64,000 nt of DNA from Acidobacteriia bacterium AH_259_A11_L15 (GTDB lineage Bacteria > Acidobacteriota > Terriglobia > Acidiferrales > 2-02-FULL-67-57). The notes under the pieces are model-generated. The model saw only the letters and a list, made by a program, of their open reading frames with translations, searched no databases and had not been told where the DNA came from. Positions 32,031 through 61,715 of the stretch are shown one piece after another (the first letter of the stretch is position 1; each line of letters starts with the position of its first letter). Location: the NCBI GenBank assembly GCA_027717655.1, contig JALLOH010000005.1, forward strand, positions 284 through 64,283. Reading direction: 5' to 3'. A program made the position numbers and the translations under genes.

Positions 32031-32072
32031 GGGGAATTCCCCTCGTAGACGGGCAAACCACGGGGAGCGAGT

Positions 32073-43155: not shown

Positions 43156-43177
43156 CCCGGCCGTGTCCGTCGGCTTC

Positions 43178-43927: not shown

Positions 43928-43955
43928 AAAAATTCTTCTTGCCCGTCCCGCGACG

Positions 43956-44786
43956 ATGCGACAGAATCCCCTGATGCCTGCTACGGCGATCATCCTGGCG
44001 GCGGGCCGTGGCCGCCGGTTGGGCGAGCTGACCGACCAGCGCCCCAAGTGCCTCCTCCGGGTGGGGCGCCTGAGCCTGATCGAGCATCAGTTGGAGGCCC
44101 TGCGCACCTGCGGGGTCGAGCGGGTGGCAGTGGTAGTGGGCTACCACGGCGAAGCGGTGGAAGCTTGCCTGCGGGGCCGGGCCTGCTTCCTCACCAATCC
44201 CCGCCCCCAGAGCACCAACAGCCTGTACTCGCTGTGGCTGGCCCGCGAGCACGCCCGGGAGGGGTTCCTGCTGCTGAACGCCGACGTGCTCTTCGACCCG
44301 GAAATCCTCCGCCGCGTCTCGGACTCCCCCTACCCGGCCGCGCTGGCGGTGGAGCGGCGGGAGCGCTTCGACGCGGAAGAGATGAAGGTGGAACTCGAGG
44401 GGGACCGCATCCGGGCGATGGGCAAGGCGCTGGAGCCGGGGTGCGCCCACGCGGAAAACGTGGGGGTGCTGAAGTTCTCGACCGAAGGCGCCCGGGTGCT
44501 CTTCGACCGTATGGAAGAGCTGCTGGCTGCCGGGGCGGAGAAGGAGTTCGTCCCCTACGCCTTCAACGCCCTCGCCGCTGACTACCCGCTGCACGCCGTC
44601 TGCATCGAAGGCCTGCCCTGGATCGAGATTGACTTTCCCGAGGACTTGCGGCGGGCCCGCGAGGAAGTCTGGCCCGCCATCCTGGCCCGCAGCCCAGCGC
44701 CCGCCGGCGTGGGCCCGCCTGCCGGTCGGGCAGGCCTGGCGTCCGCGGACCGGGCGGCAAACCCTTCCTCGGTTCCGGGCAACTAA
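43956..44786 (+). CDS. LicC/PntC-like nucleotidyl(cytidylyl)transferase
   Basis: AIILAAGRGRRLG...RPKCLL, LNADVLFD, WIEIDFPEDL. Low-complexity C-terminal tail. Confidence 0.75.
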   Translation: MRQNPLMPATAIILAAGRGRRLGELTDQRPKCLLRVGRLSLIEHQLEALRTCGVERVAVVVGYHGEAVEACLRGRACFLTNPRPQSTNSLYSLWLAREHAREGFLLLNADVLFDPEILRRVSDSPYPAALAVERRERFDAEEMKVELEGDRIRAMGKALEPGCAHAENVGVLKFSTEGARVLFDRMEELLAAGAEKEFVPYAFNALAADYPLHAVCIEGLPWIEIDFPEDLRRAREEVWPAILARSPAPAGVGPPAGRAGLASADRAANPSSVPGN

Positions 44787-44822
44787 AGGAGCAAGAGCAG
44801 GCGAACACGGGCAGCACAGGAG

Positions 44823-47168
44823 ATGCCAACCACGCAGGCGACCGGCAGCACGGCGCGGCGGCTGACGGCCCTCAGCCTGGGGGGTCTCCTTCTCTTCCCT
44901 CTCCCCGCCGCCGCCCAGCCTCCCCAGCACCAGCCCATACTCGGCCGGCTGCTTGAGCCGGGAACTACCCGGGTGGTGGTTCAGGCGGAGTTCTGCCGCT
45001 GCGGCCCGCCCGCCGCCTTCCAGGCCGCCCTGCCCGGAGGCGACGTTCTCCTGCTGACCATCGGCACCGAGAGCGGGAGCGAGGACCAGCTCCACTTCCA
45101 CCCCCTGGCCAGCCTCGCCTTTGACCGCACACTCAGCCAAGAAGGAACCGGCCAGTGGATGGCGCTGTGGGTCTACGGCCCCTCGCCCGCCGGTTGGCGA
45201 CGCACTCTGCGGGCTGTGCTCCCGCTGCCGGCCGGGGCCCCCCAAGCCTCCGAAAAGGATCTCGCGCGGCTGGACGACTGGCTTGGGGAGATTCGCCGCG
45301 CGCCCGAGGACGCTGCCTTGCCGGTGCCCGACCCGGTGGTGCAACTCATCAACCTGGGCCGCGCCTCCCGCAGCCAGGGCATCCTGGGGGGGCTGCGGCG
45401 AGGGCTGGTGTGGGCGAACCTGGTCAACCCGGCGCAGTACCTCTTCCGCACCTATCTCTCCCGGCGCAAGGACCGCCGGGAGCGCAACTTCCAGCGCGCT
45501 TACCTGGCCCTGCAATGGCTGCTCGATGTGGCCTACACGGGCGAGCAGGAGGCCGACTGGCTGGCGAGCGTGAACGAGCTCCGCTTCCACCTGCTGCGGA
45601 ACCGGTCGTTCTTCGGCCGCTGGGTGCTGCACGCCGACGCCCTGGAGTTGATCTACAACTATGAGAGCAGCATGCGGGTGAAGGTGGGCAAGGCCTCCTC
45701 TTGGTTGCAAAGCGCCGCCAACGAACACTCCCTCCGCTACCAGCCCTTCTACCGCTTCACCGAGAATGGGGCCGCCTTCCCCATCGGCGGCGTGCTCTAC
45801 TACGACCCCCGCCTGGGGGCGGCGCCCGACGCCGACTGGTGGGGGGTCGCCAACCCCTTCGACCTCCCCTACAACCCGCACACGCACCCCGAGGTGCAGC
45901 GGCTGGCGCGCGAGCATCCGGACGAGCTGATCCCGCTGAGCGTCTACACCTTCCAGACCGACTTGGCCCTGCGGCCCATCATCGCCATCGACTTTTTCGC
46001 CCCCGGCAACCCCGGCAGCCGCGAGAGCAGCCAGCAGATGATGGTGCTGGTCAAGAACTGGCTGGCCATCACCACGGGGTCGCTCTCGGTGGAGCGCATC
46101 CCCTACCGGCTCATCGCCTGGGCCGCCAACAAGAAAGGCTTCACCCGCCTGGTGGACAAAAGCTCCCGCCTGGGCATCGAAGAGCTGCGCCTGGCCCTGG
46201 AGGCCGAACTCTACTTCGACCCGCAGCTCCGCCCCCTGCTGCAGCAGCGCGCCGACCAGCGGGTGCTCAACCCCCTGATCAAGCCCGGCCCGGTAGAGGA
46301 GCGCCTGGCCCATATCCAGTACGAAAGCCTGCTGGCCCTCGATGGCCGCGCGCTCTGCCGCACCCTGGCCCGGGTGCGGGAAGAGATGAACCAGCGGCTG
46401 GAAGTTCCCGACGGGTTGCCTCCGGCCGAGCAACGCCGCGAGCTGGCCCGGCGGCTGGTGGCCTGGAACCAGCAGCTCCGCCTGGAGGATTTCCTGGCGC
46501 AGCCGATGGGAGACTTCGGCTCTCTCGCCGCCCTGAGAGACCCCCTGGAGTTCTTCCTGCAAGCCGACCCGCCGGACAGGGAAGAGCTGGAGGACGTGCT
46601 GGGCGAGCTGTACGCCAAGCTTTACATCCAGCAGCTCCGCCTGCCCTCCGGCCACAGCGTCCCCGAGCTGGAAGCCGCCCTGGAGTTGACCCGGCGCGTC
46701 TGGGAGCGAGTGGCGATCGAGCGAGACTTCGCCGCCCGCCAGGCCAAAGTGGAACAACACGCCCGGCGGCGCGAAGAAAAGGAGCAGCGCGAGCGCGAGA
46801 AACGACGACGCCGCGCCCTGCGCGAGTTCGTCGAGAGCTGCCACCAGCAACTCAAGCAAGCCCGCCGCGCCGGCTGCGGCGCTGCCACCGACGCCCCCGC
46901 CCAGCTCGACGCCCACCTGGTGCTGCTCTGGGAAGTGCTGCTGGCGGCCCAGGCCGACGAGAACCTGCGCGCCGAGTTCCAGCGCCACGCCCCCCGCCTG
47001 CGCCGCGACTTGATTCGCCTGGAAGACGCCCTGCGCGGCTGCCCGGCGGGGACCGACTCCTGGGTGGCCGACCGGACAAATTCTTATTTGCACCTGGTCC
47101 GCGCCCTGCAAGCCGAACTGGAGCGCGCCTCCAGCAACACCGGGGCGCAGGCCGCCGGAGGAGGCTAG
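44823..47168 (+). CDS. Large secreted hypothetical protein
   Basis: 781 aa with a signal peptide (LLLFPLPAAAQ) and a C-terminal coiled coil (EQHARRREEKEQREREKRRRR). No recognisable catalytic motif. Confidence 0.6.
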   Translation: MPTTQATGSTARRLTALSLGGLLLFPLPAAAQPPQHQPILGRLLEPGTTRVVVQAEFCRCGPPAAFQAALPGGDVLLLTIGTESGSEDQLHFHPLASLAFDRTLSQEGTGQWMALWVYGPSPAGWRRTLRAVLPLPAGAPQASEKDLARLDDWLGEIRRAPEDAALPVPDPVVQLINLGRASRSQGILGGLRRGLVWANLVNPAQYLFRTYLSRRKDRRERNFQRAYLALQWLLDVAYTGEQEADWLASVNELRFHLLRNRSFFGRWVLHADALELIYNYESSMRVKVGKASSWLQSAANEHSLRYQPFYRFTENGAAFPIGGVLYYDPRLGAAPDADWWGVANPFDLPYNPHTHPEVQRLAREHPDELIPLSVYTFQTDLALRPIIAIDFFAPGNPGSRESSQQMMVLVKNWLAITTGSLSVERIPYRLIAWAANKKGFTRLVDKSSRLGIEELRLALEAELYFDPQLRPLLQQRADQRVLNPLIKPGPVEERLAHIQYESLLALDGRALCRTLARVREEMNQRLEVPDGLPPAEQRRELARRLVAWNQQLRLEDFLAQPMGDFGSLAALRDPLEFFLQADPPDREELEDVLGELYAKLYIQQLRLPSGHSVPELEAALELTRRVWERVAIERDFAARQAKVEQHARRREEKEQREREKRRRRALREFVESCHQQLKQARRAGCGAATDAPAQLDAHLVLLWEVLLAAQADENLRAEFQRHAPRLRRDLIRLEDALRGCPAGTDSWVADRTNSYLHLVRALQAELERASSNTGAQAAGGG

Positions 47169-47173
47169 CCGGT

Positions 47174-49888
47174 ATGGGAGACCGCAGGCATTTTCGTGGC
47201 GGCGGGCGACTCCTGCTGGTCCTGGCCCTGCTGGCCGGCACGCTTCCCCTGCCCGCGCGCGCCCAGGAGGCGGGGGGCTTGGCCCAGCCGGGGAGCAAGC
47301 CCGGGGGGCGGCCGCGGCTGATCCAAATCAAGGTCGACGGCCTCAGCCCCTTCCTGCTCGAGGCCCTCATCGACCCGGAAAAGCTCGCCCGCTTGCCCGA
47401 CCCGGAGGGTTTCCGCCGCGCCATCACCCTCTTCCGCCAGCAGACCGGGCAGGAGGACTTGGTGCCGAACATCCGCCGCTACTTCTACCAGCAGGGGGTG
47501 CGGGCGGAGCGGATGCTTTCGGCCACGGTGACGCTGTCGGCTATCGCCTGGGGAGTGATCGACACCGGGCAGCCCAGCGTCGTCAAGCGCCACATGACCT
47601 TCAGCCGCCAGACCGGCTACCTGCGCTCCCACTTGGACGGCTTCCGCGACACCCTGGAGTTCGTGCTGCGCAAGGGCGGCAAGACCAACGCGCTGTGGCA
47701 GCTCGACCAGGCCGGGGTCAGCCTCTTCGCGGACGCCTTCAACCCCCTGCGCCGCTATGAAATCCCCCAAATCTACTATCGCGTCACCCCGCGCGACTAC
47801 CTGACCGGCCTGGCCACCAACTACCTCTTCGCCGGGCAAAGCCCGCGCCACCCCTTGAAGGTGCTGCAAGCCCACCTGGCGCGGCGGGCCGAGGGCATCG
47901 ATTACGTGGACTTCGGCATTGACTTTGCCACCGACCTGGTGGCGAAAAAGATTCTCGAGCCCGACTTGGTGGCAGGGGAGCGCTACGACTACTTGGGCAC
48001 GTTTTTCACCCTTGACCACCAGCAGCACGTCGACCCCAACCCGGAGAACCTAGTTCGGCGCATGGTGCAGTTGGACCGGCGCATCGGCCGCATCCTGCGG
48101 GCGGTCGAGCGCAGCCAGCGCCGCGACACCACCCTGGTGGTGCTGGTGAGCGATCACGGCTCCGAGTACCAGCCCGGGGCCATCAACCTGGCCTGGCCCA
48201 TCACCCGCGTGTTCCGCACCCGGCGCTTCGGCGGCCACACCGTCGCCACCGTGATGGCCGAGGATGCCGGCCGGGCCCTCACCAACCCCTTTCCCGGCGT
48301 CGACTTCCCCCGCGTGTACGAAAACCCCTACTCGCCCTACGGGGCGGCCGCCGAGGCCGAGGGGCATAGCAACTACGTCACCGCGGTGATCGACAACTTC
48401 GGCAACGCCCGCGCCGAACTCCACCTGCGCAACAACGACCTCAACCGGTTGCACCTGCTCTTGCAGGCGCGCCCCCGCGAATTGGACGAAGAGGGCCGCG
48501 CCCGCCTGCGGCAACTCCTTCGCGAGACCCTGGCGTCAGTCCGCGAGTGGCTGGAGCCGGAGCTGGCCGATTATCTCGCCTACTACCGGGGGGTGCGCGG
48601 CTGGCTGCCGGAGCTGGAACACCGCAGCGACCCCTACTGGCGGGACGCCGCCATCCGCCTGCGGGAGGAGAACCAGCGCGACGCCGCCCAGCTCCGCCTC
48701 TTGCAGCGCCTGGCCGAGCTTTGCCAGGCCGACCACCCCTTGCTGTGGCTGGAAGAGCACCAGCCCAAGATCCCCCAACTCATCCCCAAGAAGTACTTCG
48801 GCCCGCGCAACTCCCTCTACCAGCTCACCCACTACACCGTGGGCCTGGACGAAAATTTGAACTGGGTCGAAACCAGCCTGGACCGCCAGGGGCGCCCCCG
48901 GCCGATGAACTACCTGGAGATTCTCTCCACCTACGAAGCGCCCAACCCGCCCCTAAGCCGCGAGCCCAACCCCACCGACCTGATCGTGCGCTCGCTCGGG
49001 GTCGAACCGCTGCGGGCGGCGCTGGTGGAGCGCGGGTGGCTGGAGCCCACCGTCCGCCTGCGGCGGGTGGTGTGGGTGGTCTCGACCGCGCGGCACAACC
49101 TGCGCCGGGGCGACCAGGCGCTGGTGCTGGAAGCCACCGATGGCCGCGTGCGCTACCTCCCCCTCCGCAACCTAGAAGAGGACGCGGACGGCCGCTTCAC
49201 TTTCCAGGCGCACAATGAGCTCGACCCCCTCGGCCTCTTCTACGACCCCAAGTTCAACTCCCCCACCGGCGAGCCCGCTTTCCTCTGGCTGGAGCGGTTC
49301 CACACCCGCCAGGAGTGGCTCCAGGCCGCCTACGACACCCGCTACACCATCGCCCCGCTGGTGTTCTTCGACATCGCCGGCGTGCATACCGACCGCTTCC
49401 TGAACAACCCGGGATTCCTGCGCGCGCTGGCCGGGTTCCCCTCCGAGGAGGCCAAGCAGAGTTACCTGCGCGGCTTGCACTGGAAGTACGGGGCCCAGCA
49501 GCCTGACCTGCTGCTGTGGTCGAACTACCTCTGGAACTACTCTTCGAAGAGCCACACTTCCGGGGGCAGCCACGGCGGGCTTTCGCCGCTGGTGGCCCGC
49601 ACGGTGTTTCTGCTCTGGGGCGGGCGCGCCTTCGAGCTGCCCGGCGGCAGCGTGATGGCCGAGGCGGCCACCACCATGGATATCGTCCCCACCGTCGCCC
49701 ACCTGCTGGGCATGCTCGACCCCGAAGGGCAAGTCATCCGGCAGGCCGGCGCCGTCCGCGAGCGCCCCTTCCTGCCCCTCCCCGGCCGGGTGCTGCTACC
49801 GGCGGAGCCGCTGGAATGGGCCGGCCCCCGCGGGCGCCACTGGCCCCCGGGGCGGCCCTCGCCCCCGCTGGCCAACCCCACCGATTGA
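47174..49888 (+). CDS. Large secreted alkaline-phosphatase-superfamily protein (nucleotide pyrophosphatase/phosphodiesterase-like)
   Basis: Start at MGDRRHF with a signal peptide. IKVDGLSP (metal Asp), VLVSDHGSEY, GGSHGGLSP are motifs of the NPP/PglZ-type AP superfamily. 904 aa. Confidence 0.65.
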   Translation: MGDRRHFRGGGRLLLVLALLAGTLPLPARAQEAGGLAQPGSKPGGRPRLIQIKVDGLSPFLLEALIDPEKLARLPDPEGFRRAITLFRQQTGQEDLVPNIRRYFYQQGVRAERMLSATVTLSAIAWGVIDTGQPSVVKRHMTFSRQTGYLRSHLDGFRDTLEFVLRKGGKTNALWQLDQAGVSLFADAFNPLRRYEIPQIYYRVTPRDYLTGLATNYLFAGQSPRHPLKVLQAHLARRAEGIDYVDFGIDFATDLVAKKILEPDLVAGERYDYLGTFFTLDHQQHVDPNPENLVRRMVQLDRRIGRILRAVERSQRRDTTLVVLVSDHGSEYQPGAINLAWPITRVFRTRRFGGHTVATVMAEDAGRALTNPFPGVDFPRVYENPYSPYGAAAEAEGHSNYVTAVIDNFGNARAELHLRNNDLNRLHLLLQARPRELDEEGRARLRQLLRETLASVREWLEPELADYLAYYRGVRGWLPELEHRSDPYWRDAAIRLREENQRDAAQLRLLQRLAELCQADHPLLWLEEHQPKIPQLIPKKYFGPRNSLYQLTHYTVGLDENLNWVETSLDRQGRPRPMNYLEILSTYEAPNPPLSREPNPTDLIVRSLGVEPLRAALVERGWLEPTVRLRRVVWVVSTARHNLRRGDQALVLEATDGRVRYLPLRNLEEDADGRFTFQAHNELDPLGLFYDPKFNSPTGEPAFLWLERFHTRQEWLQAAYDTRYTIAPLVFFDIAGVHTDRFLNNPGFLRALAGFPSEEAKQSYLRGLHWKYGAQQPDLLLWSNYLWNYSSKSHTSGGSHGGLSPLVARTVFLLWGGRAFELPGGSVMAEAATTMDIVPTVAHLLGMLDPEGQVIRQAGAVRERPFLPLPGRVLLPAEPLEWAGPRGRHWPPGRPSPPLANPTD

Positions 49889-50051
49889 GGCCCGCTTTCC
49901 GTTTGCCGGCCCGGAAAACTGGGGTAGGCTGGTGCCGTTCCAACTTTGAGAGCAGTGGTAGTTTTCCGGAGGGCTCGCGGTTTCGCGCAACTTGAACGGT
50001 ACGAGCGCGTGTGCGCGCCCGCGGAAGACAACCCGCTGGTCCCCGCTCCCT

Positions 50052-51026
50052 ATGCGAAAGCTCGAGTGGATATTCCTGGTGCTCGGCCTGGCTCTCTTCA
50101 TCGTCCTGCTCGACCGGGTGGGCTGGGAGGAGATTCTTCGCCGCCTGCTGACTCTCGGCTGGGCCTTCCTCTTGGTCCTGGGCGTCTCCGGCTGCCGCTA
50201 CCTCTGCCGGGCCGCCGCCTGGCGATGCGCGTTCGCCGGCCGCCAGGACACGCCCTCTTTCCGCGACATGTTCCAAATGCGCTTGGCGGGGGAGGCCATC
50301 GCCTACCTGACCGTGGCCGGCCCCCTATTGGGGGAGCCCGCCAAGGCTACCCTGCTCCGCCGACGAATGCCGATGCTGGTCGGCCTGGGGGTCACCCTGA
50401 TCGAAGCCGGCATCTACGGCCTCACCTCCATCTTGGTGATTCTCGTCGGCCTGGTCCTCGGCCTGCTCCGGGTGACGATGGACGAGAAGATGCAGCGTGC
50501 CGGCTGGGTCGGGGCGCTGCTGCTGGCGCTGTTCCTGCTGGCGGTCGCCTGGCTGCTGCGGCGGCGGGTACGCTTCCTCTCGGCCGCGGTGAACTGGCTG
50601 GCTCGCGGGCGCATGGGCCGCTGGCTGGCCCCTCACCGTCCCCGACTGACCGAGCTGGAAGACCACCTGCTGCGCTTCTACGGCGAGCACGCCCGCGACT
50701 TCCGCGCCCTCTTCCTCTGGAACTGCCTAGCGCAGGCCTTCGCCATGTTCGAAATCTATATCATCCTCGGGGCGCTGGGGCTGCGGGCCACCTGGGAAGA
50801 CCTGCTCATCCTGGAAGGAATGAGCAAGGTGTTTAAGACGCTCTTCTTCTTCATTCCCGCCCGCGTCGGCACCGACGAAGCCGGCATGGCCGCGGTCTTC
50901 CAGGTACTGGGCCTGGGCTTCAGCCAGGGCGTCAGCCTGGCCCTGGTCCGCCGCCTGCGGGCGCTGGTCTGGTCAGGCGCCGGCCTGGTCTTTCTCTCCC
51001 GGTACGCCCTGCGGAGAAACCAGTAG
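50052..51026 (+). CDS. LPG_synthase_TM / UPF0104 flippase-like membrane protein
   Basis: About 8 TM segments. MRKLEWIFLVLGLALFIVLL... and a C-terminal ...ARVGTDEAG...ALVRRL typical of the lysyl-PG-synthase TM (flippase-like) family. Confidence 0.6.
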   Translation: MRKLEWIFLVLGLALFIVLLDRVGWEEILRRLLTLGWAFLLVLGVSGCRYLCRAAAWRCAFAGRQDTPSFRDMFQMRLAGEAIAYLTVAGPLLGEPAKATLLRRRMPMLVGLGVTLIEAGIYGLTSILVILVGLVLGLLRVTMDEKMQRAGWVGALLLALFLLAVAWLLRRRVRFLSAAVNWLARGRMGRWLAPHRPRLTELEDHLLRFYGEHARDFRALFLWNCLAQAFAMFEIYIILGALGLRATWEDLLILEGMSKVFKTLFFFIPARVGTDEAGMAAVFQVLGLGFSQGVSLALVRRLRALVWSGAGLVFLSRYALRRNQ

Positions 51027-51132
51027 CTTGGGATTGCTCTCTCACAGGCGCTGTGAGAAACTCGCAGCTACGGCAAGCAGTTGTCCGACAGGTCGGCTGG
51101 TCGCCGGGCAATCCGCTTGAGGGTCAGTTCCT

Positions 51133-52956: not shown

Positions 52957-52991
52957 AAGCAGCTTCCTGCTCGCCCCGCGGCCTGACGGTG

Positions 52992-52997
52992 TATAAT
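52992..52997 (+). promoter_or_regulatory. TATAAT box 12 nt upstream of the TagF-like gene start
   Basis: ggtgTATAATcttcgtctagagATG. Possible internal promoter with a very short leader. Confidence 0.25.
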
Positions 52998-53009
52998 CTT
53001 CGTCTAGAG

Positions 53010-54095
53010 ATGCCGGCCAACGGAGACAAGCGAATCATCTTCCACGCGGCCCTGCCGCACCACTTCGTCTTCTTCCAGTCCGTCTACGACCGCCTGGCCG
53101 CCGACGCGCGCCTGCACTGGTTCTGGTCGTCAAACTTCCTCGGCTGGCAGTTGAAGAAGCACCTCTTCGATCTCTTTCCCGTCCAGGGAAAAAAGATCAG
53201 CTCCCTGGCCGCCCCGGTGCGCCGCTACGACCTGCTGCTCTCGCCCGTCTACCTGAAGTTCGACGTGGCCCCGCGCGCCCGCCAGCGCGTGCAGATCTTC
53301 CACGGCGTGGCCATCACCAACTGCTTCCTCAAACCGCAAATCCACGACTACACCCGCTTCTTCATGATCGGCCCCTATATGGTGAAGCGGTTCGTGCAGA
53401 AGGGCCTGCTGCGCCAGGACGACCCCCGCATTGAGATGATCGGCATGCCCAAGCTCGACCCGCTGATGAACGGCCGGATTGATACCGAGAAAATCAAGCG
53501 GGAGCTGGAGCTTGACCCCTCCCTCCCCATCGTCCTCTACGCCCCCAGCGGCTCCTACTCGTCCATCGAGGGCGAAGGCCTGGAGGTCATCGAGCGCCTG
53601 CGCGCGATGCCCATCAACCTCCTGGTCAAGCTCCACGACAAGAGCCGCGACTTCCGGCGCACCCCCGACTGGCTGCGCAAGGTGAAGAACCTCGAGGGGG
53701 GGCGGCGGCGCGTCCACCTCATCGAGGGCTTCGACATCGTGCCCTACCTGGCCCTCGCCGATGTTCTCATTTCCGATTTCAGCTCCGCCGCCAACGAGTT
53801 CCTGCTGCGCGACCGCCCCATCCTTTTCCTGGATACCCCTGAAAAATATGAGATCAACAAGGAGCGCTGGGACACCGAGGTCTGGGGCCAGCGGATCGGC
53901 GTCACGGTGAAAACGGCTGACGAACTGGTGCGCGCCCTGGAAGACGCCCTGGCCGACCCCGGCCAGCTCAGCGACCTCCGCCGGCAGGCCGCCGCCGACA
54001 TCTTCTACCGGCCCGGCACCGCCACCGACCGGGCCGTGGCCAAGATTTATGAGCTGCTGGAGCTGGCGCCCGCGACCTCCGCCGCCGCCGACTGA
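53010..54095 (+). CDS. CDP-glycerol glycerophosphotransferase (TagB/TagF) family protein
   Basis: 361 aa. IFHG..., VLYAPS, LVKLHD, ADVLISDFSSAANEFLLRDRPILF follows the TagF-family C-terminal motif order. Confidence 0.65.
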   Translation: MPANGDKRIIFHAALPHHFVFFQSVYDRLAADARLHWFWSSNFLGWQLKKHLFDLFPVQGKKISSLAAPVRRYDLLLSPVYLKFDVAPRARQRVQIFHGVAITNCFLKPQIHDYTRFFMIGPYMVKRFVQKGLLRQDDPRIEMIGMPKLDPLMNGRIDTEKIKRELELDPSLPIVLYAPSGSYSSIEGEGLEVIERLRAMPINLLVKLHDKSRDFRRTPDWLRKVKNLEGGRRRVHLIEGFDIVPYLALADVLISDFSSAANEFLLRDRPILFLDTPEKYEINKERWDTEVWGQRIGVTVKTADELVRALEDALADPGQLSDLRRQAAADIFYRPGTATDRAVAKIYELLELAPATSAAAD

Positions 54096-54120
54096 ATCCT
54101 TGGACGCATGAAAATCATCT

Positions 54121-55509
54121 TTGACTGAAGGGATTCCTCCGTTGCCCGTAAGCAAAGGCATACTGCTGAACCTGAAAGACGCGGCCGCGCCGCGGGCGCC
54201 GCGGCTGGCCGGCCTCCCGCTGTTGCTGCGCGCCGTGCTCACCGCCCAGCGCGCGGGCCTTGAGGAGCTGTTCATCGTCGGCGGCCACCACCCCGGGGGC
54301 TTGCTCACCCGCGACCCCCGGGGCAAGCTCCAGTGGCACTGGTTCCCGGTGGAGGAAGAGCCCGACGAGCTGGCCGCCTTGCGCGCCGTCGGCCACCGCT
54401 TGAACGAGCCTTTCGTCTTGCTGTTCGCCGACTCCATCATCGGCCCCGGGGCCCTCGAGGCCCTCCTGCACGCCGAACTCAACGCCAAGCTCGCCCGCAT
54501 CGCCATCCACGCCGGCACCGCCGAGCAACTGGACGGAGCCAGCCCCGCCAGCGGCGGGGTCAGCCTCTACCTCTGCAGCGCGCAGCTATTGAAGCTGGCG
54601 GAAGAAGCGCCGAAAGAATTGAAGCGGGTGGATGAATTCATCCAATGGCTGGAGGGAGGAAAAGCAGATCCCTCGCTGACGCCCGGGATGACAACGGGAG
54701 GCACGGCGCGGGTGGACAGGGTGGAAGTCGAAGGCAAGCTCTGGCCGCGCACCTCCGACAAGCAGGCGCTGCGGCGGATCGAGCGCGAGTTCGCCCACTT
54801 CAACCTCAAGCCCTCCGACGGCATCTTCGCCCGGTTCAATAAGCTGGTGGTGGCCGAATCGCTCATCCGCCTGGCAGTGCGCACCCCGGCCACGCCCAAC
54901 TTCATCACCGCTCTGGGGTTGTTGTTCGCGCTCTTCTCCGGCTGGGCCTTCGCCGAGGGCAGCTACGCTTGGAGCCTCGCCGGCGCCTTCCTGGCCTACG
55001 TTTCCGCCATCATGGACCACATCGACGGCATGGTGGCCCGGCTGAAGTTCCTGGAGTCGGAGTTCGGGGTGTGGTTCGAGTCGGCGGTCGACTACTTGAG
55101 CTACTTCTGCATCTTCGTGGGCATGGCCATCGGGCTCTACCGGGAGACCGGCTTCGCCCCTCATCTGGTGGTGGGGGGCCTGTTTTTGTTCGGGTGGGTG
55201 CTGAGCTTCGTCCTCCAGAGCCGCCAGCGTATGCTCATCAGCGGCGACAACCCCACCGACTATCCCAACCGCATCCACACCGCTCTAGAGAAGCACAACC
55301 AGAACCTCTTGCACTGGTTCACCCGCCGGGTCTACTTCCTGGTTCGCCGCGCCGTGCTCCCCTACTTCATTCTATTGTTCTGCCTGCTCGACCTGCGCGT
55401 GCTCCTGCTCGGCTTTGTGACCCTGGGCGCCAACATGGTCTGGTTGATGATCTTCTACAACAACCGCCTCTTCCGCCAGCGCGAGCACCGCCCCGCCGAA
55501 GCCGACTAG
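54121..55509 (+). CDS. Fusion: degenerate nucleotidyltransferase-like N-domain plus CDP-alcohol phosphatidyltransferase membrane domain (IPCT/DIPPS-like architecture)
   Basis: The C-terminal half has MDHIDGMVARLKFLESEFGVWFESAVD (D-x2-DG-x2-AR-x8-G-x3-E-x3-D) and about 6 TM segments. The N-terminal roughly 200 aa is NTP_transferase-like (LFADSII...) but lacks the GxGxR loop (GILLNLKD). Confidence 0.65.
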   Translation: MTEGIPPLPVSKGILLNLKDAAAPRAPRLAGLPLLLRAVLTAQRAGLEELFIVGGHHPGGLLTRDPRGKLQWHWFPVEEEPDELAALRAVGHRLNEPFVLLFADSIIGPGALEALLHAELNAKLARIAIHAGTAEQLDGASPASGGVSLYLCSAQLLKLAEEAPKELKRVDEFIQWLEGGKADPSLTPGMTTGGTARVDRVEVEGKLWPRTSDKQALRRIEREFAHFNLKPSDGIFARFNKLVVAESLIRLAVRTPATPNFITALGLLFALFSGWAFAEGSYAWSLAGAFLAYVSAIMDHIDGMVARLKFLESEFGVWFESAVDYLSYFCIFVGMAIGLYRETGFAPHLVVGGLFLFGWVLSFVLQSRQRMLISGDNPTDYPNRIHTALEKHNQNLLHWFTRRVYFLVRRAVLPYFILLFCLLDLRVLLLGFVTLGANMVWLMIFYNNRLFRQREHRPAEAD

Positions 55510-55625
55510 TGTCGCAAGTCGTTAGGTTGCGTTCTCTGGGTTAGTTTGGTAAGAATTGCGCTAAGTTTTCGGGAGCTTGAGGCTCAAAATTGCCAGACCC
55601 GTCAGAGGTCAAAGGAGGTGGCCAA

Positions 55626-57023
55626 TTGGCCAAACCTCGATTCGAATTTCGTTGGCAGAACTTCCGTAGCTTTTACGACACCGGCTGGATTGGCGTAAAG
55701 CCAATAACTGTCTTGCTAGGGGCTAATAATACAGGTAAGACCAGTCTCATGCTTCCGCTTCTAGTCCTTAGACAAACATTAGACTCTGCAGACCCGAACG
55801 TAGCACTCAAGACTACGGGTCCTATGGTGTCAATCGGCACATATCGCGACATGGTTTACCGCCACCGGGTGAATGAGCCGGTTTCATTTCATTTGCGGTT
55901 TGCCTATCCGCGCAAAGAACAAGACAAGGGAAAGAAGAGGCTGAAAAGAGTGGGTCCATATCCACCGGGCATACTGACACTGCAATTCGTTGCTGGTGAG
56001 ACAGAAAGCGAAGTCAAGTTGGGGCGGTATCAAATTCGTGACGTTTACAACAGGCCCTATGTAACCCGTAAACTTCGCCCTAACAACAAATATTCGCTGG
56101 AATTCCCTCAACAACTTCCTCAAAGGTTTCTTGAATCTGTAAACAGAGGTAAACCTGAACATTTTTTCTTCTCTGCTTCAAGCGTTATTAACGAATTCCT
56201 CAGGAAACAAATCGGGAAAACGGGGATCAAAGAACGGAAGAAGAAGCGCGGCGTGATATTGCAAAAACTAAACATTGCGGGACCAATTACACACTATTGG
56301 ATGGTTTCCGCTTCTGCGGAAGGCGATGTATCGCGCCTAATTTCGCATTTGAGCTACGTTGGCCCCTTGCGGGAACGGCCTAAGCGTTCATACGAGAGCT
56401 CTGAAGAAACTCCAGAGTCGGTGGGGGTGCGTGGAGAAAATGCTCCACTAATTCTTTTCCACAGAAAAGAATCGGATTTTCAAAAACGAATTAGAGATTG
56501 GTTACGAGAATTTGAACTAGCTGACAAAGTCGAATGTAATGAGCTGGGTCGCGGCATCTTCACCGTAGAAATACTAGGCAGAAAAAAAGGGTGGCGAGTC
56601 GATTTCGTAGATACTGGCTTCGGCCTTTCACAACTCTTACCACTTATCGTTGAAGGATTCCATTCCAAGGCAGGAGACATGATATTCGTTGAACAACCGG
56701 AAATCCATCTAAATCCAAGGCTACAATGCAAGCTCGCCAATTTATTTGCGACGCTCGCGAGGGAAGAGCGGTCGATAATCGTGGAAACACACAGTGAGCA
56801 TTTCATTTTGAGATTGCGAAGCCTTATCGCGGAAAAGAAGATTCGAGCCGACGACGTAGCTTTGTATTTTGTTGAGAAGAGGAGGGGAGAGTCTTCTGTT
56901 CGCGCCATACGAATACAAGAGGACGGCCATATTGAGCCAGATGAGTGGCCCCAAGGGTTCTTTGAAGATTCTATCGGTGAGGCACTTCGGCTTGCGAGGG
57001 CGCTCGATCAATCTGCAAGTTAG
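55626..57023 (+). CDS. ABC/AAA_21-type ATPase (DUF3696-like C-terminus), low-GC island
   Basis: Walker A LLGANNTGKTS, signature-like GFGLSQLLP, Walker B DMIFVEQPEIHLNP, H-loop ETHSEH, C-terminal DEWPQGFFEDS. TTG at 55626 is preceded by AAAGGAGGTG (the ORF also opens at a TTG at 55590). Confidence 0.8.
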   Translation: MAKPRFEFRWQNFRSFYDTGWIGVKPITVLLGANNTGKTSLMLPLLVLRQTLDSADPNVALKTTGPMVSIGTYRDMVYRHRVNEPVSFHLRFAYPRKEQDKGKKRLKRVGPYPPGILTLQFVAGETESEVKLGRYQIRDVYNRPYVTRKLRPNNKYSLEFPQQLPQRFLESVNRGKPEHFFFSASSVINEFLRKQIGKTGIKERKKKRGVILQKLNIAGPITHYWMVSASAEGDVSRLISHLSYVGPLRERPKRSYESSEETPESVGVRGENAPLILFHRKESDFQKRIRDWLREFELADKVECNELGRGIFTVEILGRKKGWRVDFVDTGFGLSQLLPLIVEGFHSKAGDMIFVEQPEIHLNPRLQCKLANLFATLAREERSIIVETHSEHFILRLRSLIAEKKIRADDVALYFVEKRRGESSVRAIRIQEDGHIEPDEWPQGFFEDSIGEALRLARALDQSAS

Positions 57024-57026
57024 GTC

Positions 57027-57506
57027 GTGGTCTTAATGCTTTTGGATATTGTTATCGATACTAATGTCTTCCAGCATTCCTACGACCCTCGCCAACAATC
57101 TCGTTTTTCCGCGAGGCAATTTCTAGAGCGATTACTTCGAAGTCAGACAGAGCTGTGTGTAGACGAAGGTTTTACTCTAGATCGCGCTACAAATCGTAGC
57201 ATCATAGGACACGAATATTTTGAAAACATCCGCTTTGTGAATCCAGCGTTCCAGATAATTGTTGCTCTTGGGCGAAGAGGTCGCATTCGGCAGTTCAGCA
57301 GAAAAGTCGATAGAGGGTTCGGCCGAAGGGTGGATCGGTGGGTGGCAAAGACTGATAGAGTGTTTATCAAGGTTACATACAAATCCCGGTCCCGAACATT
57401 CGTTTCGCACGATTTCGTGGATTTCCCGGATAGGAAACGAGAACAATTTCGAGCCGACTTTGGAATTTCAATTGTTGTTTCTGACTGGGCTGAACGTGCG
57501 CTCTAA
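57027..57506 (+). CDS. PIN-like nuclease domain protein (partner of the ATPase)
   Basis: Starts 3 nt after the ATPase stop. LLDIVIDTNVFQHS (PIN first acidic motif), CVDEG, SHDFVDF (distal acidic motif). 159 aa, low GC. Confidence 0.6.
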   Translation: MVLMLLDIVIDTNVFQHSYDPRQQSRFSARQFLERLLRSQTELCVDEGFTLDRATNRSIIGHEYFENIRFVNPAFQIIVALGRRGRIRQFSRKVDRGFGRRVDRWVAKTDRVFIKVTYKSRSRTFVSHDFVDFPDRKREQFRADFGISIVVSDWAERAL

Positions 57507-57522
57507 GCTCTTGCATTAGGCA

Positions 57523-57624
57523 CCCTTCGAGTTCGCTCAGGGTGGACAAACCCTTGCCCTACCCAGCCTTCGGCTGGAGTGGCTCTCCCATGCGTTCGAA
57601 TGCATTCAGAACGCAGAACGCATG
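57523..57624. repeat. REP copy plus palindromes on the right flank of the low-GC island
   Basis: cccttcgagttcgctcaggg (57523-42). Inverted repeat CATGCGTTC (57589-97) / GAACGCATG (57616-24). A further GGCGGC-tttag-GCCGCC lies near 57672. Confidence 0.55.
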
Positions 57625-57766
57625 CGGGGTGGAGGGGGAGTAGCGGGGCGCCCCTGCCGTGATTGTAGAGGCGGCTTTAGGCCGCCAACCTGGCGGGGTG
57701 AACCCGCCGCTACACGAAAGAATGCGCTATACTGCGGGGTTGCCGAGAGAGCAGGGCGCCGAGTGA

Positions 57767-59443
57767 ATGAGCAAGGCCGCGAAACTCCGGGAATTGTTGG
57801 GGAGGACGCAGCCCACGCTGCTGGTGGGGGCGCACAACGGGCTGACGGCGAAGCTGGCCGAAGAGGCCGGCTTTGACGGGGTCTGGGCCAGCGGCTTCGA
57901 GATCAACGCCGCCCGCGCCCTGCCCGACGCCTCCATCCTCTCCATGTCCGAGCACCTGGCGGTCTGCGGCGAAATCAACGACGCCACCGCGCTGCCCGTG
58001 GTGGCCGACTGCGACAACGGCTTCGGCAACGCCATCAACGTCATGCGCCTGGTGCGCGAGTGCGAGAAGGCCGGCCTGGCCGGCATCTCCATCGAGGACA
58101 ACGTCTTCCCCAAGCGCTGCTCGTTCTACGCCTCGGTGAAGCGCGAGCTGGAATCCATCGAAGAGTTCAGCGGCAAGATTCGCGCCGCCAAGAACACCCA
58201 ACGCTCGCCGGACTTCGTGGTCATCGCCCGCACCGAGGCCTTCATTGCCGGCTGGGGGCTGGAAGAAGCGCTCAAGCGCGCCCGCGCCTACGCCGACGCC
58301 GGCGCCGACCTCCTTCTGGTCCACTCAAAGAAAAACACCCCGGAGGAAATCCAGGCCTTCGCCCGGCGCTGGGACCGCCCTGTGCCCCTGGCCGCCGTCC
58401 CCACCATCTACAAGCAGACCACCGCGCAGGAACTCTACGAGCTGGGCTGCCGGCTGGTCATCTTCGCCAACCAGGGCATCCGCGCCTCGGTGAAAGCGGT
58501 CCGCGAAGCCCTGACCGAGCTCCGGGAAAAGCAGTTCGCCGCCGCCGTCGACCCCCGCATCGCCCCGCTGGAGGAAATCTACCGGCTCGTGGGCGTCTCT
58601 GAACTCCGTGACCAGGAAGCCCAGTTCCTCCCCGCGCCGGAGAAGACCACCGCCGTCATCGTCGCTGCCGGGGTGGGCTTCGAGCGCGAGCTGATGCCGC
58701 TCATCAAGGACCGTCCCAAGGCAATGTGGGAGGTGGGCGGCAAGACGATTCTCGAGCGGCAGGTCGAGCGCCTCCGCGCCCACGCCATCAAGGAGATCGT
58801 CGTCGTCCGCGGCTACAAGAAGGAAGCCTTCCCGGCGCTCGACACCGTCCGCTACGTCGACAACGACCGCTACGCCCAGACCCACAACCTGGCTTCGCTG
58901 TTCTGCGCCGAGCCGGCGCTGGAGGGCCGCGTGCTCGTCCTCTACGGCGACATCCTCTTCGACTCCAGCATCCTCGACCGCCTGCTGCGCGCCCAAGCCG
59001 ACGTCGCCCTGGTGGTCGACCACGCCTGGCAGGAGAGCTACCAGCGCGGCCAGCTCCACCCGGTCAGCCACCCCGAGCTGGTGCAAACGCAGAACTCGCC
59101 CCTCTACAAGAACCGCTTCCTCCCCGCCGCCGACGGCAACCGCGTCACCCGCATCGGGCGGACCATCGAACCCGCCCAGGCCCAGGCGGAGTTCATCGGC
59201 ATGGCGCTGTTTTCCCCGCGCGGCACGAAAATCCTTCGCGACACCTACCACCGCCTGACCAAGGTCGCCGACCAGCTCCCCTTCCACGAAGCCGCCGGCT
59301 TCCAAAAGGCCAGCCTCTCGGACATCCTCCAAGAGCTGCTCGACCAGGGCCTGCCCGTCGCCGCGGTCGATATCTACAAGGGCTGGATGGAAGTCGACAC
59401 CTTCGAAGACTACGTCAAGGTATGCGAGCAGATACAGCTCTGA
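57767..59443 (+). CDS. PEP-mutase-family protein (non-canonical signature) fused to a C-terminal nucleotidyltransferase domain
   Basis: The N-terminal roughly 290 aa is collinear with PepM (GAHNGL, DCDNGFGN, ARTEAFIAGWGLEEALKRARAYADAGADLLLVHSKK), but the signature reads IEDNVFPKRCSF (58094-58126) instead of EDK-x5-NS. The C-terminal half is NTP_transferase-like: VIVAAGVGFE...RPKAM...YGDILFD...WMEVDTFEDY. Confidence 0.8.
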   Translation: MSKAAKLRELLGRTQPTLLVGAHNGLTAKLAEEAGFDGVWASGFEINAARALPDASILSMSEHLAVCGEINDATALPVVADCDNGFGNAINVMRLVRECEKAGLAGISIEDNVFPKRCSFYASVKRELESIEEFSGKIRAAKNTQRSPDFVVIARTEAFIAGWGLEEALKRARAYADAGADLLLVHSKKNTPEEIQAFARRWDRPVPLAAVPTIYKQTTAQELYELGCRLVIFANQGIRASVKAVREALTELREKQFAAAVDPRIAPLEEIYRLVGVSELRDQEAQFLPAPEKTTAVIVAAGVGFERELMPLIKDRPKAMWEVGGKTILERQVERLRAHAIKEIVVVRGYKKEAFPALDTVRYVDNDRYAQTHNLASLFCAEPALEGRVLVLYGDILFDSSILDRLLRAQADVALVVDHAWQESYQRGQLHPVSHPELVQTQNSPLYKNRFLPAADGNRVTRIGRTIEPAQAQAEFIGMALFSPRGTKILRDTYHRLTKVADQLPFHEAAGFQKASLSDILQELLDQGLPVAAVDIYKGWMEVDTFEDYVKVCEQIQL

Positions 59444-59844
59444 CCTCCAGCGTCGGGCTCTACCATCAATTTCGGGAACAGGGCTACGACTTCTTCGTCG
59501 GCGTCCCCTGCTCGGGGCTGTCCGCCTTCATCAACGACCTGCAGGCGGACAAACGGTCGCCCTTCATCCCCGCGCCCCGCGAAGACGTAGCCCTGGCGAT
59601 GGCCGCCGGCGCCGCCATGGGCGGCAAGAAGCCCCTAGTCTATCTGCAAAGCTCCGGCCTCGGTCACCTGGTCAATCCCATCGCCTCCCTGCTCAAGCCC
59701 TACGGCCTTTCCGTGCATTTACTCATCAGCCTGCGGAGGAAACCGTTCGAGCATTTCTTCATGCACAAAATCACCGTGCCGCTGCTCGACCTGCTCGAAT
59801 ACGACGACTACACCATCGTCGAGGAGCCCAAGTGCGACGCCTAG
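59422..59844 (+). CDS. ThDP-dependent (phosphono/sulfo)pyruvate decarboxylase, alpha (PYR-domain) subunit
   Basis: MRADTAL...GYDFFVGVPCSGL...REDVALAMAAGAAMGGKKPLVYLQSSGLG is the Ppd/ComD N-terminal pattern. ATG at 59422 overlaps the upstream gene by 22 nt. Short (140 aa). Confidence 0.65.
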   Translation: MRADTALTSSVGLYHQFREQGYDFFVGVPCSGLSAFINDLQADKRSPFIPAPREDVALAMAAGAAMGGKKPLVYLQSSGLGHLVNPIASLLKPYGLSVHLLISLRRKPFEHFFMHKITVPLLDLLEYDDYTIVEEPKCDA

Positions 59845-60311
59845 AAGCCATCCGGCAACTGGCGGCCGAGTGGACCGACGAGCTCATCGTCGCCACCACC
59901 GGCATGATCAGCCGCGAGCTCTACGTCGTCCGCGACCGCGCGGAGAACTTCTATATGTGCGGCTCTATGGGCTGCGCCCTCCCCATCGGCCTCGGCCTGT
60001 CCCTGGCCCACCCCGAACGCAAAGTGGTGGTGCTCGACGGCGACGGCGCCGCCCTGATGAGCCTGGGCTCACTGGCCCTGGCCCGCCACTTGCGCCTCCC
60101 CAACCTGGTGCACATCATCCTCGACAACGCTACCTATGCCTCCACGGGGGACCAACCCACCTGCTCCGCCGCGCTCAACTTCGAAGAGGTCGGCTTCCAG
60201 GTGCGCCACCTCCGCGTCGAGCCCGGTAACCAGCCCGACACCCCCCGCATCCCCTACGACCCCCTCGAGATGCGCCGGCGCTTCGAGCGCGCCGTCCGCC
60301 GCTCTGCCTGA
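59832..60311 (+). CDS. ThDP-dependent (phosphono/sulfo)pyruvate decarboxylase, beta (PP-domain) subunit
   Basis: GSMGCALPIGLGL, VLDGDGAALMSLGSL...ILDNATYASTG (GDG-x26-N ThDP motif). Confidence 0.75.
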   Translation: MRRLEAIRQLAAEWTDELIVATTGMISRELYVVRDRAENFYMCGSMGCALPIGLGLSLAHPERKVVVLDGDGAALMSLGSLALARHLRLPNLVHIILDNATYASTGDQPTCSAALNFEEVGFQVRHLRVEPGNQPDTPRIPYDPLEMRRRFERAVRRSA

Positions 60312-61078
60312 TGCCCGCCGACACCCTGGCTGTTCTGCTCGCCGCCGGACCCGGCACCCGCTTGCGGCCGCTCACCCAGGACCGACCCAAGTGCCTGCTG
60401 GAGCTCGCCGGGCGTACGCTGCTCGACTACCAGCTCGCCGCCCTGGCCGCCCACGGCATTGAAGACGTCCTGGTGGTGACTGGTCACTGCGCCGACCAGA
60501 TCGTCTCCCGCTACCCCCGCCGCATCCGCACCCTCCACGACCCCGACTACGCTGCCACCAACAATCTGCACTCGCTTTGGACCGCGCGCCACGAGCTGGC
60601 CGGGCGCGACACCCTTTGTCTGCACACCGATCTGCTCTTCCACCCGGCCATCCTCCGCCCCTGCCTGGAGCACCCGGCGGACGTCTGCGTAGCCCTCGAC
60701 ACTGAGCTGGTCGAAGAAACCATGAAAGCCCGGGTGGAGAACCACCGCGTCGTCGAAATCAGCAAGAACATTCCCCCCGACAAAATGTTCGCCACCTTCC
60801 CCGGCATCGCCCGCTTCTCCCCCCGCGCCTCCGCGTTGCTGCCAGCGGTTCTGGACTCGCTGCTGAAAGAGGAAGTAAATCGCCACGCCTATTTCACCGC
60901 CTGCCTGCCGCCCCTCACCGCCCGCGGCTGCCAAGTGGGCTATTCCTTGACCCGGGCACTCCCTTGGATTGAAATCGATTCCCCGGCCGACTTGGAGCGA
61001 GCCCAAAAGGAAACCCTACCCTCCCTCCTCCCCGTTTTCGCAAAACTCCCCAGCCTCCATTTCGGGGAAAACCGTTAG
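60311..61078 (+). CDS. LicC/PntC-like nucleotidyl(cytidylyl)transferase (second stand-alone copy)
   Basis: AVLLAAGPGTRLRPLTQDRPKCLL, HTDLLF, WIEIDSPADL. TGATG overlap with the decarboxylase beta gene. Confidence 0.75.
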   Translation: MPADTLAVLLAAGPGTRLRPLTQDRPKCLLELAGRTLLDYQLAALAAHGIEDVLVVTGHCADQIVSRYPRRIRTLHDPDYAATNNLHSLWTARHELAGRDTLCLHTDLLFHPAILRPCLEHPADVCVALDTELVEETMKARVENHRVVEISKNIPPDKMFATFPGIARFSPRASALLPAVLDSLLKEEVNRHAYFTACLPPLTARGCQVGYSLTRALPWIEIDSPADLERAQKETLPSLLPVFAKLPSLHFGENR

Positions 61079-61317
61079 TCCTTTTTTATTCAATAACTTA
61101 CGTTCGCCACCGGGCACTTCAACCGAGGTGGGAGGGGGGTCCTAGACTCCGACTTTCGGCTCTTCCATCTTAGTCCCCCTATGTCATTGACCCTTCTTCA
61201 CCCTTCGATAGAGAATGGGCCGGGTTCGGGGGATTCGCGCGGTGGAATTCTGCTGGTCGCCAGGGCGCGACTCCCCTACCCAAACTGCGACTCCGAAGCG
61301 AAGAGAGGTAGAAGCCA

Positions 61318-61683: not shown

Positions 61684-61715
61684 TCCGGCGTTTCCTCCGG
61701 AGGCCAACAAACGCC

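Follow-up and report, generated by a model that had tools for sequence, protein, structure and literature searches.

What does a gene cluster make, and to what is the product attached, when the cluster is built around a protein that joins a phosphoenolpyruvate (PEP) mutase (PepM)-like domain to a nucleotidyltransferase (NTase) domain and encodes no enzyme for the branch step after phosphonoacetaldehyde? The question is raised by a locus in a 64,000-nucleotide stretch of contig JALLOH010000005.1 from Acidobacteriia bacterium AH_259_A11_L15 (the whole stretch is called the window here). A sequence-only reading of this DNA had described a PepM-type head-group cluster at 43956-61078, an interpretation that our analysis supported in part. 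We favour, with moderate confidence, a phosphonyl-tailoring cluster of the 'Group 1 phosphonolipid' type around a non-canonical clade of PEP mutases, all of the proposed pathway steps being derived from homology and synteny. The most interesting point, which the sequence-only reading had not seen, is a widespread, conserved PepM-like clade that lacks the PepM signature motif and is embedded in phosphonate-type clusters.

The open reading frame (ORF) map, combined with Pfam and NCBIfam, placed all of the cluster genes of 43956-61078 on the + strand, co-directionally, and recovered every gene that had been listed before. The central genes are as follows.

50052..51026, + strand: LPG_synthase_TM/HpnL-like polytopic membrane protein, putative flippase (PF03706, 82.5 bits)
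54121..55509, + strand: membrane CDP-alcohol phosphotransferase whose N-terminal domain is NTase-like but degenerate (PF01066, 39.9 bits)
57767..59443, + strand: PepM-like/NTase fusion of 558 aa with the lid motif EDNVFPKRCS (PEP_mutase PF13714, 197 bits; NTP_transf_3, 52.4 bits)
59422..59844, + strand: alpha subunit (PYR domain) of a thiamine diphosphate (ThDP) decarboxylase (PF02776; TIGR03297, 87.3 bits; TIGR03845, 74.7 bits)
59832..60311, + strand: beta subunit (PP domain, GDG...DN) of the ThDP decarboxylase (PF02775; TIGR03846, 151.3 bits; TIGR03297, 151.0 bits)
60311..61078, + strand: NTase3, LicC/PntC-like cytidylyltransferase with a canonical LAAGPGTRLRPLT...RPK loop (PF12804, 58.3 bits)

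The PepM-like domain belongs to the PepM/phosphonopyruvate hydrolase branch. Against proteins of the PDB it scored 289 bits with PepM 5unc, 250 with phosphonopyruvate hydrolase and 247 with Mytilus PepM, compared to at most 118 with methylisocitrate lyases, and the grouping with lyases that would have undermined the sequence-only reading was not observed. Identity to genuine PepMs was approximately 50%, and D58, D85, D87, E114, K120, S123, R159 and H190 (Mytilus numbering) were identical in pairwise alignments to 1m1b and 5unc. The domain is also coupled to an enzyme predicted to consume phosphonopyruvate, as the split ThDP decarboxylase gene overlaps the fusion gene; successive overlaps of 22, 13 and 1 nt link fusion, alpha, beta and NTase3, the start of NTase3 overlapping the beta stop codon. 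The loop of the fused NTase domain is a variant (AAGVGFEREL..RPK), and variant loops are found in canonical Ppm fusions too. Both the PYR and the PP domain of the decarboxylase are present, with a visible activating-Glu motif (RED) and GDG...DN motif. The best PDB match of the alpha subunit was 9iz3_A, a 'putative phosphonopyruvate decarboxylase alpha', and that of the beta subunit was 9iz3_B (114.6 bits), in agreement with the earlier decarboxylase assignment. The split state had been considered as evidence for a sulfopyruvate decarboxylase, an argument weakened by this solved split putative phosphonopyruvate decarboxylase (Ppd).

All of the best 120 homologues (identity down to 52%) were fusions of approximately 558 aa carrying ED(N/S)xFPK(R/K/Q)CS(F/L)Y, named 'isocitrate lyase/phosphoenolpyruvate mutase family protein' by NCBI. 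Relatives were encoded in 349 stretches of the 185,579 species-representative genomes scanned, and the clade spans Acidobacteriota, Binatia, Polyangiaceae, Nitrospirales, Planctomycetota and others. The 349 include cultured carriers: Sorangium cellulosum So0157-2, So ceGT47, several more Sorangium isolates and Minicystis rosea DSM 24000. In a neighbour-joining (NJ) tree of 50%-identity cluster representatives, built without bootstrap support, the fused EDN..CS proteins formed one group within wider non-EDK variants, apart from the EDK..NS clusters and from those resembling phosphonopyruvate hydrolase (PPH); the tree is no more than indicative of a monophyletic clade.

Activation and transfer functions surround the fusion. 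The best PDB matches of NTase3 were LicC 1jyk (60.8 bits) and PntC 6pd1 (57.4 bits), and those of a further cytidylyltransferase, NTase1, were LicC 1jyk, IPCT 2xme/4mnd and PntC 6pd1, which bears out their description as LicC/PntC-like. NTase1 and NTase3 combine a PF12804 domain with the Gly-rich (L)AAGxGxR loop and the PK motif. Of the four NTase-like domains counted previously, three have family support; the fourth, the N-terminus of the CDP-alcohol transferase, had no Pfam match and no GxGTR loop, and it resembles an NTase solely through residues 196-225, which align to the end of the 4mnd IPCT domain. This transferase matched AF2299 4o6m and IPCT-DIPPS 4mnd in the PDB. The CDP-alcohol signature D-x2-DG-x2-AR-x8-G-x3-E-x3-D is intact in the window (DHIDGMVARLKFLESEFGVWFESAVD); its third Asp is Glu in 8 of 35 motif-bearing ORFs, the window and its clade included. 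The putative flippase scored 102 bits on HpnL TIGR03476, under the cut-off of 195.65.

The sequence-only reading had left the acceptor open. That was overstated, as the core corresponds to the Group 1 phosphonolipid architecture in so far as the summary in PMC8942020 and a figure legend in PMC5987646 set it out, and because of this match a lipid is the likeliest acceptor.

Gene context was counted in the 80 species-representative loci kept (loci are given L numbers here). The split decarboxylase adjoins the fusion in 38 of the 80, and these 38 loci all have an extra LicC-like NTase, 23 of them a CDP-alcohol transferase. The genes are kept together across phyla, whereas missing co-conservation would have counted against the sequence-only reading: a core of fusion, alpha, beta, LicC-like NTase, LPG_synthase_TM/HpnL-like protein and CDP-alcohol phosphotransferase recurs in Chloracidobacterium, Binatia, Nitrospinota and other Acidobacteria, the LPG_synthase_TM/HpnL-like gene being part of it in L001, L003, L004, L007 and L008. 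Among the 38 loci, 10 have a PhnW-like aminotransferase (333 bits on TIGR03301 in L003, against a cut-off of 360.8), 6 an aldehyde dehydrogenase (Blastocatellia/Chloracidobacterium) and 4 Zn-alcohol dehydrogenases. Aminotransferase, aldehyde dehydrogenase and alcohol dehydrogenase steps match the three known fates of phosphonoacetaldehyde (PMC8942020). These branch enzymes in relatives are the strongest indirect evidence that the clade may produce phosphonopyruvate.

The remaining 18 of the 38 loci (the window's clade and Polyangiaceae) have no branch enzyme. Pfam and NCBIfam detected no aminotransferase or dehydrogenase encoded in 43956-61078, and neither a 2-aminoethylphosphonate (AEP) aminotransferase nor a 2-oxoglutarate/Fe(II) oxygenase in 40486-61683. 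There was no branch enzyme in the loci of the close relatives L005, L089 and L090 either, so the gap pointed out by the sequence-only reading is genuine in the window locus and in its close relatives. In a Pfam scan, the neighbours in Sorangium So0157-2 comprised a minimal five-gene set and a flavin halogenase-like gene, with no branch enzyme among them.

The previously described limits of the cluster were right in content but not at the left edge. The cluster extends upstream to an outer-membrane barrel gene and a LolA-like gene; the unit begins at 40486, because its left border is formed by QueF/STAS/Pro_dh genes on the opposite strand. The further genes of the unit, with a conserved downstream neighbour, are as follows.

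40486..43155, + strand: outer-membrane beta-barrel resembling TonB-dependent receptors and carrying a CarboxypepD_reg domain; start codon uncertain (Pfam OMP_b-brl_4, 105 bits; CarboxypepD_reg, 48.6; TonB_dep_Rec_b-barrel, 37.3)
43016..43927, + strand: LolA-like/MucB_RseB-like periplasmic protein (weak Pfam matches: LolA_like, 24.6; MucB_RseB, 20.1), the real start probably lying downstream of 43155
43956..44786, + strand: NTase1, LicC/IPCT-like cytidylyltransferase with an intact LAAGRGRRL...RPK loop (PF12804, 71.7 bits)
44823..47168, + strand: 781-aa exported protein with a signal-peptide-like N-terminus (no Pfam or NCBIfam match)
47174..49888, + strand: AP904, a 904-aa exported phosphodiesterase-like protein of the nucleotide pyrophosphatase/phosphodiesterase (NPP) type in the alkaline phosphatase (AP) superfamily, with large insertions (PF01663, 31.6 bits; PF00884, 24.7 bits)
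51133..52956, + strand: AsnB-type glutamine-dependent amidotransferase (TIGR01536, 471 bits)
53010..54095, + strand: TagF-family CDP-alditol phosphotransferase-like enzyme (PF04464, 48.2 bits against a cut-off of 22.1, residues 135-346)
61318..61683, + strand: PilZ-domain protein, downstream neighbour conserved within the clade (PF07238, 40.1 bits)

The gene order of the window recurs in L005, L089 and L090 at 63-94% protein identity, and because the same order recurs there it is not due to chance. These are the nearest layouts (PepM fusion 76% identical in L005; AP904 approximately 65% in L089 and 94% in L090), the stretches of L005 and L090 ending within the cluster, so that each shows part of the order. 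The common order runs barrel, LolA-like, NTase1, 781-aa protein, AP904, HpnL-like, AsnB (sometimes absent), TagF-like and CDP-alcohol transferase, followed by a variable slot and then fusion, alpha, beta, NTase3 and PilZ. NTase1 is kept in L089 and L090, and the PilZ gene is also present in L005, L006, L009 and L011. The barrel gene is also immediately upstream of the cluster, paired with the LolA-like gene, in L008, L012, L089 and L090. The TagF-like gene, with orthologues 72-73% identical in L005 and L009, is specific to the window's clade, and AsnB (found in L005 and L090, absent in L089 and L009) is accessory and not kept in all close relatives. The sequence-only reading had counted the TagF-like gene, for polymer-type acceptors, among the activation and transfer functions in which the locus is enriched; the gene is present, though clade-specific.

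The exported proteins add an envelope part. The 781-aa protein, previously noted as an unknown secreted protein, had no family match and has a signal-peptide-like N-terminus; its AlphaFold2 (AF2) model (pLDDT 80.9) starts with a beta-sandwich and continues into a long helical region, and no PDB structure matched it at E<=0.001. Its 53 homologues are all annotated 'hypothetical', and the named ones are acidobacterial (Terriglobia, Acidiferrales) except for one from a 'Xenobia' metagenome-assembled genome (MAG). In AP904 the Pfam matches are confined to residues 267-336. The top Foldseek matches of its AF2 model (pLDDT 86.3) were NPP/ENPP proteins (including autotaxin, ENPP7 and ENPP6; probability 1.00, target-normalised TM approximately 0.4), these three structural neighbours being lipid-head-group enzymes. 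D55, T118, D281, H285, D327, H328 and H800 were invariant in 32 homologues; on motif similarity, rather than an alignment with a solved NPP, we read them as the putative nucleophile and metal ligands of an NPP. A separate acidobacterial locus, L091:6568-16273, which has no PepM gene inside 10 kb, holds an HpnL-like protein, an 806-aa unknown protein, an 883-aa AP protein, Exo_endo_phos and a TonB-like barrel, which suggests an independent envelope lipid-remodelling module. Because L091 carries this set without PepM, the envelope part appears separable from the rest.

The pathway that we favour would begin with the conversion of PEP to phosphonopyruvate by the PepM-like domain, an unfavourable equilibrium that the translationally coupled split ThDP decarboxylase would pull towards phosphonoacetaldehyde. 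The aldehyde would then be converted to a final C2 phosphonate, in relatives presumably AEP by the PhnW-like enzyme, phosphonoacetate by the aldehyde dehydrogenase or hydroxyethylphosphonate by the Zn-alcohol dehydrogenases; in the window's clade, which has no linked branch gene, either an unlinked enzyme would act or the head group would be new. NTase3 and the fused domain may make the CMP-phosphonate, from which the membrane CDP-alcohol phosphotransferase would transfer the phosphonyl group to a membrane alcohol such as diacylglycerol, and the HpnL/LPG_synthase_TM-like protein would flip the product to the outer leaflet. The acidobacteria-specific NPP-like enzyme, 781-aa protein and LolA-like/barrel pair might process the lipid or carry it to the outer membrane, and the clade-only NTase1 and TagF-like enzyme might add or transfer a second CDP-activated unit.

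Several observations weigh against this pathway. The domain does not carry the EDKX5NS signature (the window reads EDNVFPKRCS, equivalent to K116N and N122C), and its TIGR02320 score of 285.7 is under the equivalog cut-off of 319.55. Since the motif and the cut-off both failed, 'PepM' is a predicted function here and not a family membership; of the earlier assignment, the placement in the branch stood and the membership did not. The lid as a whole has changed in a concerted way (L48F, K116N, N122C, Q130R and Tyr at position 125), and position 122 is the residue that most authors hold responsible for the difference between mutase and hydrolase (PMC7916636). In 42 of the 80 loci, mostly in Binatia and Nitrospirales, the fusion has no adjacent decarboxylase. 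Sulfopyruvate models scored similarly to Ppd models in the window (alpha, 87.3 for Ppd vs. 74.7 for ComD; beta, 151.0 for Ppd vs. 151.3 for ComE). The branch-point enzyme is missing at the window locus, which is not unprecedented, since approximately 13% of canonical Ppm neighbourhoods likewise have no known branch enzyme (PMC8942020). Finally, open-access papers and bioRxiv yielded no biochemically characterised member of the EDN..CS clade and no biochemically characterised Group 1-type phosphonolipid.

The alternative that survives best, although we consider it unlikely, is that the EDN..CS domain is not a PEP mutase. With a Cys in the switch position, it would perform hydrolase- or lyase-like chemistry with proton transfer or use some other enol or 2-oxo acid; the split decarboxylase would then act on a different beta-anionic 2-oxo acid, sulfopyruvate for instance, and the product would have a non-phosphonate head group. 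The lid motif reads K-R-C, and superfamily lyases carry a K(K/R)CGH motif. The replaced N122, the concerted lid changes and scores under the cut-offs of both TIGR02320 and TIGR02321 (phosphonopyruvate hydrolase) fit this alternative, as do the beta-subunit scores and the loci without a decarboxylase, 22 of which pair the fusion with an ORF of approximately 330 aa that has weak squalene-hopene-cyclase (SHC) repeats and starts 9 nt after it. This SHC-like pairing keeps a different function open. However, the NTases and CDP-alcohol transferases require a phosphate or phosphonate nucleophile, and a sulfonate is not CMP-activatable in a known way. The linked aminotransferases score near the AEP-aminotransferase equivalog, every catalytic residue outside the altered lid positions is kept, at approximately 50% identity to genuine PepMs, and the architecture equals that of canonical Ppm phosphonolipid clusters. 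Examples of the loci without a decarboxylase are L019, L031 and L045 (L045:9992-12697).

A related idea, which we hold only tentatively and rate as quite unlikely, is that the EDN-X5-CS clade is a distinct enzyme in which the lid Cys in place of Asn122 alters the chemistry, and that the loci without a branch enzyme and the SHC-paired loci without a decarboxylase make undescribed head groups. Such an enzyme could use a P-substituted substrate (e.g. nucleotide-activated PEP) or a covalent or proton-transfer intermediate. As regards the acceptor, in a Nitrospinota MAG (L004/L024:15760-20562) the phosphonate-type core abuts squalene-hopene cyclase, PNP_UDP_1 and SQS_PSY genes of hopanoid type. With a membrane protein that resembles HpnL, the acceptor could instead be a hopanoid polyol.

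More doubtful is a phosphonate carried mainly on a glycan or exopolysaccharide (EPS) by the TagF-like transferase, with the CDP-alcohol transferase making only a carrier or intermediate. The TagF-family gene and the extra NTase are kept in the clade, AsnB-type amidotransferases occur in EPS loci (the window AsnB scored 448 bits on TIGR03108), and an EPS locus lies 8.6 kb upstream (Wzy_C, Wzz/GNVR kinase, GT4). Across phyla, however, the fusion is conserved together with a CDP-alcohol transferase and an HpnL-like protein rather than with TagF, and L089 lacks AsnB. The EPS locus, which the sequence-only reading had placed about 8 kb away, is indeed present but is not syntenic in L089, where the upstream region (approximately 3.4 kb) encodes TatA, a response regulator and a histidine kinase and no EPS genes. 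In the window, the EPS/O-antigen-type genes at 28038-35381 (minus strand) encode Wzy_C, a TPR protein, a Wzz/GNVR tyrosine-kinase co-polymerase and a GT4 initiating transferase.

Least probable is that independent modules (envelope, TagF/AsnB and phosphonate) stand side by side with no single product, as the L091 set and the unrelated insertions in the slot between CDP-alcohol transferase and fusion would allow, but AP904-like and sometimes 781-aa-like genes border the phosphonate core in a number of acidobacterial lineages that differ in branch type (L005, L007, L014, L015, L017 and L089), and the barrel/LolA-like pair directly abuts the fusion gene in L008 and L012.

The phosphonolipid interpretation bears on how phosphonate producers are counted. 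Published censuses accept PepM only with a perfect EDKX5NS motif (PMC6697681, PMC8942020, PMC12723261; the latest from December 2025), and Rice et al. 2019 filtered by EDKXXXXXNS, removing 22 fused proteins without the motif (PMC6697681). Because the EDN..CS clade fails EDKX5NS, motif-filtered censuses discard it. Other PepM-branch clusters, P0127, P0132, P0165, P0196 and P0268 among them, also fail EDKX5NS and retain Asn122-Ser123, with the motif variants EDN..RNS, EDA/EDG..RNS and EDN..NHS. The filter probably loses several clades, EDN..CS being just one. In open-access papers and bioRxiv we found no description or characterisation of an EDN..CS PepM variant, and no report of phosphonates or phosphonolipids in Sorangium or Acidobacteria. 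Sorangium So ce836 transcribes a core gene of a 'phosphonate' biosynthetic gene cluster (BGC), which may or may not be the EDN..CS cluster (PMC10128143). If the EDN..CS proteins work as mutases, current estimates of how common and how taxonomically widespread C-P biosynthesis is are too low, notably for soil phyla, and the supposed essentiality of Asn122 and Lys116 is due for revision; if they are not mutases, the PepM/PPH branch holds a new activity. Both outcomes are open to testing in the cultured Sorangium and Minicystis strains, which would aid identification of the phosphonolipids predicted for the Group 1 cluster type.

In the window, one further feature occupies the slot that separates the CDP-alcohol transferase gene from the fusion gene.

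55590..57506, + strand: low-GC two-gene insertion, an AAA ATPase and a 159-aa ORF (GC 0.46-0.56 vs. approximately 0.67 around)

The ATPase (AAA_15/AAA_21/DUF3696) matched PADLOC candidate defence proteins (HEC-03B, 200 bits; PDC-M55A, 196; NsnB, 194), and the 159-aa ORF had no matches. This defence-like insertion, which is outside the pathway, occurs in the window alone among these relatives and is absent from L005, L006 and L089; because relatives hold unrelated genes there, the slot looks like an integration hot spot. Displacement of a branch enzyme by the insertion was rejected, since the insertion-free close relatives L005 and L089 also lack one. A promoter and terminator scan of 43000-62000 gave nothing exceeding the shuffled background.

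Approximately 27 larger ORFs outside the cluster were scanned with Pfam. An Aminotran_5 gene at 36023-37402, set off from the cluster by Pro_dh, STAS and one more ORF on the minus strand, was rejected as the missing transaminase: it scored 175.7 bits on TIGR03301 (PhnW-AepZ) vs. 209 on BhcA, and it is not at that place in L089. As called, it encodes an AGXT/BhcA-like protein of 459 aa with an N-terminal extension of approximately 80 aa, nearest to the aspartate-glyoxylate aminotransferase BhcA. A second Aminotran_5 gene, at 16677-17945 (495 bits on Aminotran_5), lies beside SufB/D and ABC-ATPase genes and is most likely the SufS cysteine desulfurase. At 2048-4827, a glucosyl-3-phosphoglycerate synthase-like gene (363.6 bits, under the cut-off) lies beside a HAD phosphatase and a small PgsA-like CDP-alcohol phosphatidyltransferase, which may be a compatible-solute or glycolipid gene set.

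Compared to known systems, the locus is closest to the Group 1 phosphonolipid clusters, which have the 'Burkholderiales_CDP-OH' family layout (Yu et al. 2013, as summarised in PMC8942020); the figure legend in PMC5987646 lists hpnL, CDP-alcohol transferase, NTP transferase, pepM, ppd and AEPT for the Nostoc and Burkholderia clusters. Going by these summaries, five of five shared features are present in the window (Ppm-NTase fusion, Ppd, second PntC-like NTase, CDP-alcohol transferase and hpnL-like gene), and in both cases the product is predicted and was never isolated. Two Group 1 core features, the AEP aminotransferase and the 2-oxoglutarate/Fe(II) oxygenase, are not present in the window, which also has EDN-X5-CS for EDK-X5-NS, a split decarboxylase and, as extras, the TagF-like enzyme, a third NTase, the NPP-like exported enzyme, the 781-aa protein and the barrel/LolA-like pair. 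The locus largely matches the Group 1 cluster, yet we do not file it as a member, because these two core features fail and the mutase fails the PepM motif and equivalog tests.

The window enzyme shares with PEP mutase (Mytilus 1m1b, Streptomyces 5unc) the fold, the branch, the metal ligands, R159/H190 and the decarboxylase coupling, and differs from it in the gating loop (K116N, N122C) and in L48F, Q130R and Tyr at 125. Phosphonopyruvate hydrolase (PalA; 2dua/2hjp) also departs from PepM at position 122 (Thr, not Asn), but it keeps EDK and is a stand-alone catabolic enzyme, whereas the window enzyme has a biosynthetic NTase/decarboxylase context; in the NJ tree without bootstraps, PPH-like clusters (EDK..DTS) lie outside the EDN..CS clade. 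With the PntC/LicC Pnt pathway (PMC6697681) the window has in common PF12804 NTases fused to Ppm and adjacent to it, and the logic of CMP-activation, the proposed transferase in the window being instead a CDP-alcohol phosphotransferase. Like IPCT-DIPPS 4mnd and AF2299 4o6m, this transferase joins a cytoplasmic NTase-like domain to a CDP-alcohol phosphotransferase membrane domain; unlike them, it has an N-terminal domain with no nucleotide-binding Gly-rich loop and presumably acts on a CMP-phosphonate and a lipid alcohol.

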